Shown piece by piece: positions 3,943 through 4,192 of a stretch of 6,252 bases of DNA (the first letter of the stretch is position 1; each line of letters begins with the position of its first letter). This DNA is from a virus (Duplodnaviria > Heunggongvirae > Uroviricota > Caudoviricetes). Location: IMG/VR virus record IMGVR_UViG_2698536307_000011; one strand, given 5' to 3'. The notes below the pieces were generated by a model, which was given only the letters and a program-made list of their open reading frames with translations, was not told where the DNA came from and did not search any database. A program made the translations under genes and the position numbers.

Positions 3943-4018
3943 GGCCCTTTAGCTCAGTGGTGAGAGCGAGCGACTCATAATCGCCAGGCCGCTGGTTCAA
4001 ATCCAGCAAGGGCCACCA
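3943..4018 (+). tRNA. tRNA-Ile2 (anticodon CAU, presumably lysidine-modified; formally could be tRNA-Met)
   Basis: Hand-folded cloverleaf: acceptor GGCCCTT/AAGGGCC, D-stem GCTC/GAGC, anticodon loop CTCATAA, T-arm GCTGG-TTCAAAT-CCAGC, encoded CCA. Very similar to E. coli ileX as recalled; corresponds to ileZ of Stx phages. Confidence 0.85.
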
Positions 4019-4025
4019 TCACATA

Positions 4026-4102
4026 CCGCCATTAGCTCATCGGGATAGAACGCCAGCCTTCGAAGCTGGTTTCGCGGGGTTCGAGTCTCCGATGGCGGTC
4101 CA
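4026..4102 (+). tRNA. tRNA-Arg with anticodon UCG (reads CGA/CGG)
   Basis: Acceptor CCGCCAT/ATGGCGG is perfect; anticodon stem CCAGC/GCTGG with loop CTTCGAA; T-arm CGGGG-TTCGAGT-CTCCG; encoded CCA. One mismatch in the D-stem. Anticodon read directly from the loop. Confidence 0.75.
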
Positions 4103-4115
4103 TTATCGGTATTCT

Positions 4116-4192
4116 GCGTTTTTAGCTCAGCCGGACAGAGCAATTGCCTTCTAAGCAATCGGTCACTGGTTCGAACCCAGTACAACGCACCA
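4116..4192 (+). tRNA. tRNA-Arg (anticodon UCU, reads AGA)
   Basis: Acceptor GCGTTTT/ACAACGC (one mismatch), D-stem GCTC, anticodon stem ATTGC/GCAAT with loop CTTCTAA, T-arm ACTGG-TTCGAAC-CCAGT, encoded CCA. Resembles E. coli argU and Stx-phage argO as recalled. Confidence 0.85.

Follow-up and report, generated by a model that had tools for sequence, protein, structure and literature searches.

Is the anticodon UCG in the middle gene of a phage-borne transfer RNA (tRNA) trio the mark of a changed specificity or the normal state of that gene, and which codons would such a trio serve? This question is raised by positions 3943-4192 of a viral DNA stretch of 6,252 nucleotides (Caudoviricetes; IMG/VR record IMGVR_UViG_2698536307_000011), the whole of which we call the window. 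A preliminary description, made from the letters alone, had recognized here the ileZ-argN-argO arrangement of Shiga toxin (Stx) phages and, expecting argN to read AGG through the anticodon CCU, had taken UCG together with a D-stem mismatch for the sign of a divergent or altered-specificity copy. We consider it likely that the trio is the standard ileZ-argN-argO cassette of Escherichia coli lambdoid prophages, lying in a prophage without stx genes and acting mostly as a decoding top-up. The argN of the window is a minor derived allele without new specificity. We call it slightly degraded but widespread because it has a C11·A24 mismatch, yet trios at least 99% identical to that of the window occur in 323 complete-genome records. 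The cassette as such is already known, having been named and annotated with phage 933W.

Three tRNA genes and the cassette they form

ARAGORN found exactly three tRNA genes in the window, all on the + strand and filling 3943-4192, which is the span given in the preliminary description. A covariance-model search (cmscan) against Rfam family RF00005, with its gathering score of 29, recovered the same three genes with E-values far beyond chance. The first, ileZ (3943..4018, +), carries the anticodon CAU (CAT at 3976-3978) and scores 72.5 bits (E 6e-15). The second, argN (4026..4102, +), is a tRNA-Arg(UCG) with TCG at 4060-4062 in the loop CTTCGAA, as had been read before, and scores 44.4 bits (E 3.5e-7). 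The third, argO (4116..4192, +), is a tRNA-Arg(UCU) with TCT at 4150-4152 and scores 63.3 bits (E 2e-12). We also considered that the window argN might be a pseudogene and rejected this on current evidence: ARAGORN calls it, its Rfam score lies above the threshold, and a sequence identical to it is annotated by RefSeq and the Prokaryotic Genome Annotation Pipeline (PGAP) as tRNA-Arg without a pseudogene flag, so that none of the three sources points to an anticodon elsewhere or to a pseudo-tRNA. Minimum free energy folding of single sequences misses the cloverleaf for argN and for most native tRNAs alike and cannot decide functionality.

The assignment to the ileZ-argN-argO cassette is carried by named relatives. 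The 331-bp trio region is 95% identical to AP012539, annotated ileZ/argN/argO, and the trio of Stx2a_WGPS6, annotated with the same names, is 95% identical to that of the window. Measured against the named trios of 933W and Stx2a_WGPS6, identity amounts to 92-95%, with order, anticodons and spacers in agreement, and ARAGORN finds the order CAU, UCG, UCU on one strand also in 933W, Stx2a_WGPS6 and E. coli O157 FRIK944. The closest match comes from a prophage of O157:H7 FRIK944, in which the trio is 100% identical and no stx adjoins it. The cassette is widespread, being matched in 3056 of 5426 complete E. coli genomes, with as many as 13 places in one genome and roughly 7,500 copies altogether. 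When 40 of the 3068 matching E. coli records were sampled at even spacing, 19 had the full trio, 11 had no annotated middle tRNA and 3 had ileZ only.

The window belongs to a lambdoid prophage of E. coli: positions 121-6252 share 99.8% identity with many complete genomes. As in the 933W annotation and the prophage map, the trio lies between the region of the late antiterminator gene Q with its promoter pR' and the late genes. The earlier comparison with Stx phages thus holds for the cassette, whereas the label 'Stx phage' is wrong for the element itself. No stx genes are present among the open reading frames (ORFs) and the mapped RefSeq annotation of the window, and where Stx phages have stxAB there is a TerB-like pseudogene followed by a DUF3927 ORF. 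An stxAB operon 3' of the trio is a trait of Stx phages only and does not define the cassette. Indeed, stx2 is absent downstream of the trio in most trio-bearing viral contigs among the matches listed.

UCG is the reference anticodon of argN

Which anticodon is normal for argN can be read from its named copies. ARAGORN assigns CAT/TCG/TCT to the trios of both 933W and Stx2a_WGPS6, hence UCG to both argN genes. The GenBank notes of 933W, which together with ARAGORN form the basis for the 933W anticodons, give 'CGG?' for argN and 'AGG?' for argO. For a wider view, IMG/VR was scanned with the anticodon-free pattern CAGCCTNNNAAGCTGGTT, which fixes the anticodon stem and so misses stem-changed relatives. 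Among the matches listed, all sequences with 80% or more identity to argN, 72 viral stretches and 2 genomic ones, have TCG, and a recount with ARAGORN yielded 75 loci called Arg(tcg), 72 of them within a full trio; no CCU allele was seen among these 75 argN-like loci. The same scan of genomic contigs, where only 2 of about 125 listed matches were argN-like and most were tRNA-Gly(UCC) with a similar anticodon stem, is no reliable measure of distribution outside E. coli. In open-access literature searched by the gene names ileZ, argN and argO, no relevant paper was found, and a search for 933W or stx2 tRNAs with rare codons returned nothing on anticodons.

The expectation of CCU for argN was therefore mistaken, given UCG in 933W and Stx2a_WGPS6, the 933W notes and TCG at all 75 listed loci; the AGG note in the 933W record sits on argO. 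Equally, UCG does not mark an altered specificity. A false lead is thereby corrected: argN is the UCG ('CGG?') gene and not a CCU/AGG gene.

Predicted decoding and charging of the three tRNAs

The label 'Met' that ARAGORN attaches to ileZ reflects only the unmodified anticodon, and PGAP labels the gene tRNA-Ile. It starts with GGCCCUU and ends with AAGGGCC, so that the pairs C4-G69 and C5-G68 are present, and it is 88% identical to ileX of E. coli K-12, annotated tRNA-Ile(CAU). These two pairs are TilS determinants that direct lysidine formation. From these features ileZ is presumably a tRNA-Ile2 of the lysidine type reading AUA. A separate observation concerns the top of its anticodon stem, where A27·C43 stand opposed in every allele and native ileX has G27·U43; this conserved opposition is presumably tolerated or functional. 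By their anticodons, argN would decode CGA/CGG and argO AGA/AGG.

Seven tRNA-Arg genes are annotated in K-12, and these are generally regarded as its full set: four with ACG (argQVYZ), one with CCG (argX), one with UCU (argU) and one with CCU (argW). None of these carries UCG, so that argN lacks a counterpart in this set. Its identity to the native K-12 tRNA-Arg genes reaches no more than 66-71%, and its body is unusual in having C1-G72, U73 and U15, none of which occurs in them.

The identity elements of arginyl-tRNA synthetase (ArgRS) are A20, C35 and G36/U36, with a purine discriminator (A73/G73) as a minor element. In argN, the D-loop AUCGGGAUA puts A at position 20 and UCG supplies C35 and G36; all three are invariant across the 23 distinct UCG argN alleles that we compared, taken from viral contigs, 933W and Stx2a_WGPS6 among the matches listed. 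The discriminator departs from this pattern, since argN has U73 in every allele and native tRNA-Arg has A73 or G73. From the conserved major elements, we infer that argN would be charged with arginine by ArgRS.

The window alleles of argN and argO

The D-stem mismatch noticed at the outset is indeed there: in the stem GCUC/GAAC, C11 (4036) stands opposite A24 (4050), and cmscan flags the pair as non-canonical. A24 is found in the window allele only, that is in 1 of the 23 listed UCG alleles, while in all the rest G24 leaves no mismatch in the D stem. The window allele further differs by a U in place of the G of the variable loop, and by a T-stem wobble G52·U62 where many alleles instead have G51·U63. 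Compared with the 933W copy, 6 of 77 positions differ (92% identity). The suggestion of a divergent copy is thus modestly borne out, without any new specificity coming with it. Among the viral contigs listed, this argN allele is accompanied by the Q type and the TerB-like module of the window in 6 of 8 cases and once stands upstream of stx2.

As for argO, the majority allele pairs G6-C67 in the acceptor stem, whereas the window copy has an uncompensated mismatch U6·C67 (4121·4183) that cmscan marks as non-canonical; at the discriminator, A73 (4189) takes the place of the majority G73. In a nearest-neighbour model, which ignores tertiary contacts and modifications, the cloverleaf of the window argO reaches -15.2 kcal/mol against -22.0 kcal/mol for the majority allele, about 6.8 kcal/mol lower stability. 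The argO of 933W (L243 1796-1872) differs at another site, with G37 in the loop CUUCUGA, and the window and most alleles have A37. The window thus carries slightly weakened alleles of both arginine tRNAs.

Codon supply and the likely role of the cassette

Whether the trio matches the codons of its own genes was assessed with the annotated coding sequences (CDSs) of the full prophage (L244) and stx2AB of 933W, compared with 24 host core genes (L245). AGA and AGG together are strongly enriched, with an odds ratio (OR) of 17 in early genes (p=2e-20), 11 in late genes (p=7e-16) and 30 in stx2AB. ATA follows with an OR of 4.7 in early genes (p=2e-12) and 32 in stx2AB, while the OR of 1.6 in late genes is not significant (p=0.11). 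Rare-codon supply, as the preliminary description had it, hence fits argO well, ileZ for early genes and stx2, and argN weakly.

In the most likely course of events, the cassette would be transcribed from its own sigma-70-type promoter (pT in 933W) and also by readthrough from pR' when Q is active. The CAU of ileZ is presumably converted to lysidine and then reads AUA; tRNA-Arg(UCG), probably with a modified U34, would read CGA/CGG, or further codons of the CGN box depending on that modification, and tRNA-Arg(UCU) would read AGA/AGG. The most likely function is a top-up of decoding for host-rare codons that are enriched in prophage genes, with a presumed benefit to phage or host.

Several observations weigh against this proposal. 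CGA is not enriched in early genes, late genes or stx2AB (OR about 1), and CGG is enriched in late genes only (OR 2.1, p=4e-5) and not in early genes or stx2AB, so that the rare-codon argument holds for AGR, for ATA in early genes and stx2 and weakly for CGG in late genes, but fails for CGA. The Rfam score of argN, 44.4 bits, is the lowest of the trio. In the nearest-neighbour model, with the same neglect of tertiary contacts and modifications, the argN cloverleaf reaches -21.6 kcal/mol in the window against -28.3 kcal/mol for a G24 revertant, a loss of about 6.7 kcal/mol. Covariation among the alleles gave no positive signal: pairing was not above that of shuffled alignments and all three double changes came from the Lys variant; with UCG alleles of about 95% identity to one another, the test says little. 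Elsewhere, many prophages have an argN with stem mismatches or one that can no longer be recognized, next to intact copies of ileZ and argO, and this suggests that argN is dispensable. Finally, no expression or aminoacylation data were found in the searchable literature.

Fates of argN in other prophages and alternative explanations

Of the three genes, argN varies most, and outside the window its backbone is met in quite different states. Decayed homologues lie at L246 1577-1676 (uk_P46212) and L248 1577-1720 (FELIX_MS724), where the ends of the acceptor stem are kept and the interior is scrambled with a 4-nt insertion. Neither ARAGORN nor PGAP calls this middle gene, and Rfam returns no match at E<=1. 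In both prophages ileZ scores 72.5 bits; argO is intact in L246 (68 bits) and truncated in L248.

A different fate is seen in the CUVET21-1780 prophage (L247 1578-1654), which has the same Q/ileZ arrangement. Here an argN-bodied tRNA of 81% identity is called tRNA-Lys(UUU). Retained from argN are U73, both the D and the T arm, and an acceptor stem in which a single pair has changed with compensation. The anticodon arm reads UCAAC-CCUUUAA-GUUGA and has an unusual C33. Two of the three compensatory double changes affect the anticodon stem and the third affects the acceptor stem. By its sequence, this gene looks like an anticodon-remoulded relative of argN. It is followed at 1657-1810 by tRNA-Thr(UGU) and tRNA-Gly(UCC), 100% identical to the native host tRNA-Thr/Tyr/Gly cluster, which we take to be the thrU-tyrU-glyT operon; the identity suggests that the prophage cluster captured host tRNA genes. 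The full Lys-Thr-Gly cluster is present in about 12% of complete E. coli genomes (629 of 5426).

One might hence regard argN, and perhaps argO, as a passenger under relaxed selection that is on its way to a pseudogene, with stem breaks that impair folding or processing and little added to translation. Speaking for such decay, C11·A24 is unique among the 23 listed UCG alleles, argO of the same lineage has U6·C67 in place of the majority G6-C67, and the predicted cloverleaf losses are of similar size in both genes (about 6.7 kcal/mol for argN and about 6.8 for argO). Outright loss of argN next to intact neighbours in L246 and L248, an unannotated middle tRNA in about 11 of the 40 evenly sampled records, and the lack of CGA enrichment with a modest one for CGG fit as well. 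We nevertheless judge it unlikely. The window argN exceeds the Rfam threshold by a wide step (44.4 against 29 bits) and is called tRNA-Arg by ARAGORN and PGAP, and its anticodon loop, A20, T-loop and encoded CCA end are intact. Furthermore, a lone A·C opposition can pair in a wobble-like manner, and the A27·C43 of ileZ is conserved in every allele with no sign of decay. The identical trio also persists in at least 323 complete-genome records, though clonal spread could explain this.

A related thought is that the argN backbone serves as a fast-turnover tRNA scaffold and not as a stable codon-supply module, being intact in some prophages, weakened by uncompensated stem substitutions in the lineage of the window, decayed in many prophages of the extraintestinal pathogenic E. 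coli (ExPEC) type, or remoulded to Lys. This we hold to be improbable, somewhat more so than simple decay. If argN truly replaced a host tRNA-Arg attacked by toxins or defences, such turnover would be an arms race and not drift.

That the phage arginine tRNAs act mainly in counter-defence, standing in for host tRNA-Arg lost to colicin D and other anticodon nucleases or to tRNA-targeting defences, has a published counterpart in the general hypothesis that phage tRNAs counter anticodon nucleases, with colicin D named explicitly (PMC10264068). Two of the three tRNAs being Arg isoacceptors agrees with it, as do the lack of a K-12 equivalent for argN and its deviant body (C1-G72, U73, U15; 66-71% identity to native genes), and the weak CGA/CGG bias leaves room for another benefit. 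Yet the loop-mutation signature of nuclease evasion is absent because the loops have not diverged from the native ones: that of argO, CUUCUAA, equals the argU loop, and CUUCGAA in argN is conventional. The very strong enrichment of AGR and ATA codons in prophage genes and stx2 fits codon supply instead, and the link of these prophages to tRNA-Arg-cleaving defences is putative only. Counter-defence as the main role is therefore very unlikely.

Hardly any weight is left for the idea, which we rejected, that an argN normally reading AGG with CCU gave rise to the middle tRNA by a change of specificity: changed-anticodon relatives exist elsewhere, such as the UUU variant of L247, and apart from these nothing beyond the initial expectation spoke in its favour, against UCG as the reference state in 933W, Stx2a_WGPS6 and all 75 listed loci without any CCU allele, and against the 933W notes 'CGG?' for argN and 'AGG?' for argO.

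Altogether, the standard cassette with a mostly decoding role is the reading that we prefer. Its discovery value is small, since the cassette was named with 933W, is found in over half of the complete E. coli genomes and has UCG as its reference state. The weak codon rationale of argN, together with its frequent decay or anticodon change, is the sole aspect that could merit further work on the role of a phage tRNA-Arg(UCG).

Putative regulatory signals and prophage context

The 933W GenBank record gives the series pR', qut, terminators, pT, three tRNAs and a terminator before stx, and counterparts of several of these can be placed in the window. A consensus scan finds a candidate late promoter pR', TTGCAA-17-TATATT (3725..3753, +), which overlaps the end of Q as pR' does in the 933W annotation. 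Downstream of it, at 3796..3826 (+), a GC-rich hairpin CCCGC-CCACAA-GCGGG lies between an A-run and a T-run and is a putative tR'-like bidirectional intrinsic terminator; the terminator scan reports it on the - strand, and read along the + strand it has T7 behind the stem. Terminators between pR' and the tRNAs are likewise annotated in 933W. At 3905..3933 (+), the scan gives a near-consensus sigma-70 promoter-like sequence, TTGCAA-17-TATTAT, 9 nt 5' of ileZ. By alignment this is the homologous place of the 933W feature 'pT; putative tRNA promoter', with the -10 hexamer conserved and the -35 nearly so. Behind the trio, a weakened hairpin plus T6 (4207..4230, +) aligns with the 933W 'possible rho-independent terminator upstream of the stx genes'. 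In the window its stem contains two mismatches, C4209·A4222 and C4207·C4224, and the hairpin goes uncalled in the terminator scan.

Directly after the -10-like TATATT of the candidate pR', at 3753/3754, 9 bp (TCATGCAAA) that are present in every close relative are missing from the window. The deleted form occurs in 0 of 5426 complete E. coli genomes, where the best junction match is 91.5%. Judged by its position, the deletion likely takes away the start point of transcription together with the first transcribed part, the place at which Q normally engages RNA polymerase. Late-gene antitermination could be disabled by it, or the deletion could be an assembly error.

The Q gene itself is an ORF at 3046..3741 (+), and homologous CDSs in L001 and L244 are labelled 'bacteriophage antitermination protein Q'. 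Upstream, the RefSeq annotation mapped on the window places hokD (594-806) with its sok RNA (482-656; from Rfam, 114 bits), a DUF968 gene (1634-2683) and rusA (2696-3055). The hokD-type toxin ORF is overlapped by the sok antisense RNA and forms with it a type I toxin-antitoxin module of the prophage early region. Downstream of the trio follow a TerB-family ORF at about 4375-4800, a pseudogene with an internal stop in the annotation of relatives, and, by the mapped RefSeq annotation, the small DUF3927 ORF (4791-4958) and a SASA-family esterase gene of which only the start lies inside the window. An STnc100 small RNA match (4963-5135; Rfam, 100.8 bits) lies upstream of the esterase gene. In 933W, STnc100 is found 3' of stx2 with 207.7 bits and is adjoined by AsxR and AgvB matches, and the FELIX_MS724 prophage (L248) has it in two or three tandem copies. 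Beyond the window, the full prophage continues with lysis genes and then lambda-like head and tail genes.

Comparison with known systems

The nearest known system is the trio of Stx2 phage 933W (NC_000924, ST933Wt01-03) and of other Stx2 phages such as Stx2a_WGPS6. It shares with the window the order of the genes, the anticodons CAU/UCG/UCU, the lengths of 76/77/77 nt and near-identical inter-tRNA spacers, as well as a pT-type promoter upstream, a hairpin plus T-run downstream and the location of the cassette downstream of Q. The window differs in lacking stx 3' of the cassette and in having a Q gene of another type. At the level of alleles, it departs from 933W by G24A in argN (giving C11·A24), the U in the argN variable loop and the shifted argN T-stem G·U, by U6·C67 with A73 in argO, and by C47 in ileZ.

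Compared with the native tRNAs of K-12, the cassette shows both kinship and distance. The anticodon loop of argO, CUUCUAA, is that of argU, argN keeps A20, C35 and G36, and ileZ is 88% identical to ileX, with which it shares C4-G69 and C5-G68. On the other hand, argN has UCG, C1-G72, U73 and U15, which are absent from the seven native tRNA-Arg genes.

tRNA genes just downstream of Q recur in lambdoid phages, where they have been read as codon supplementation (PMC3636060; PMC7946995). In SfI, Sf6, ST64T and p21, tRNA-Asn/Thr genes downstream of Q share this slot and the proposed codon-supplement role with the window trio (PMC3636060), but these tRNAs have other identities and no sequence relationship to argN. 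The tRNA sets of T4, T5 and mycobacteriophages are likewise phage-borne and may replace host tRNAs (PMC10264068); the element of the window differs from them in being temperate, in having three tRNAs only and in anticodon loops that have not diverged from those of the host.

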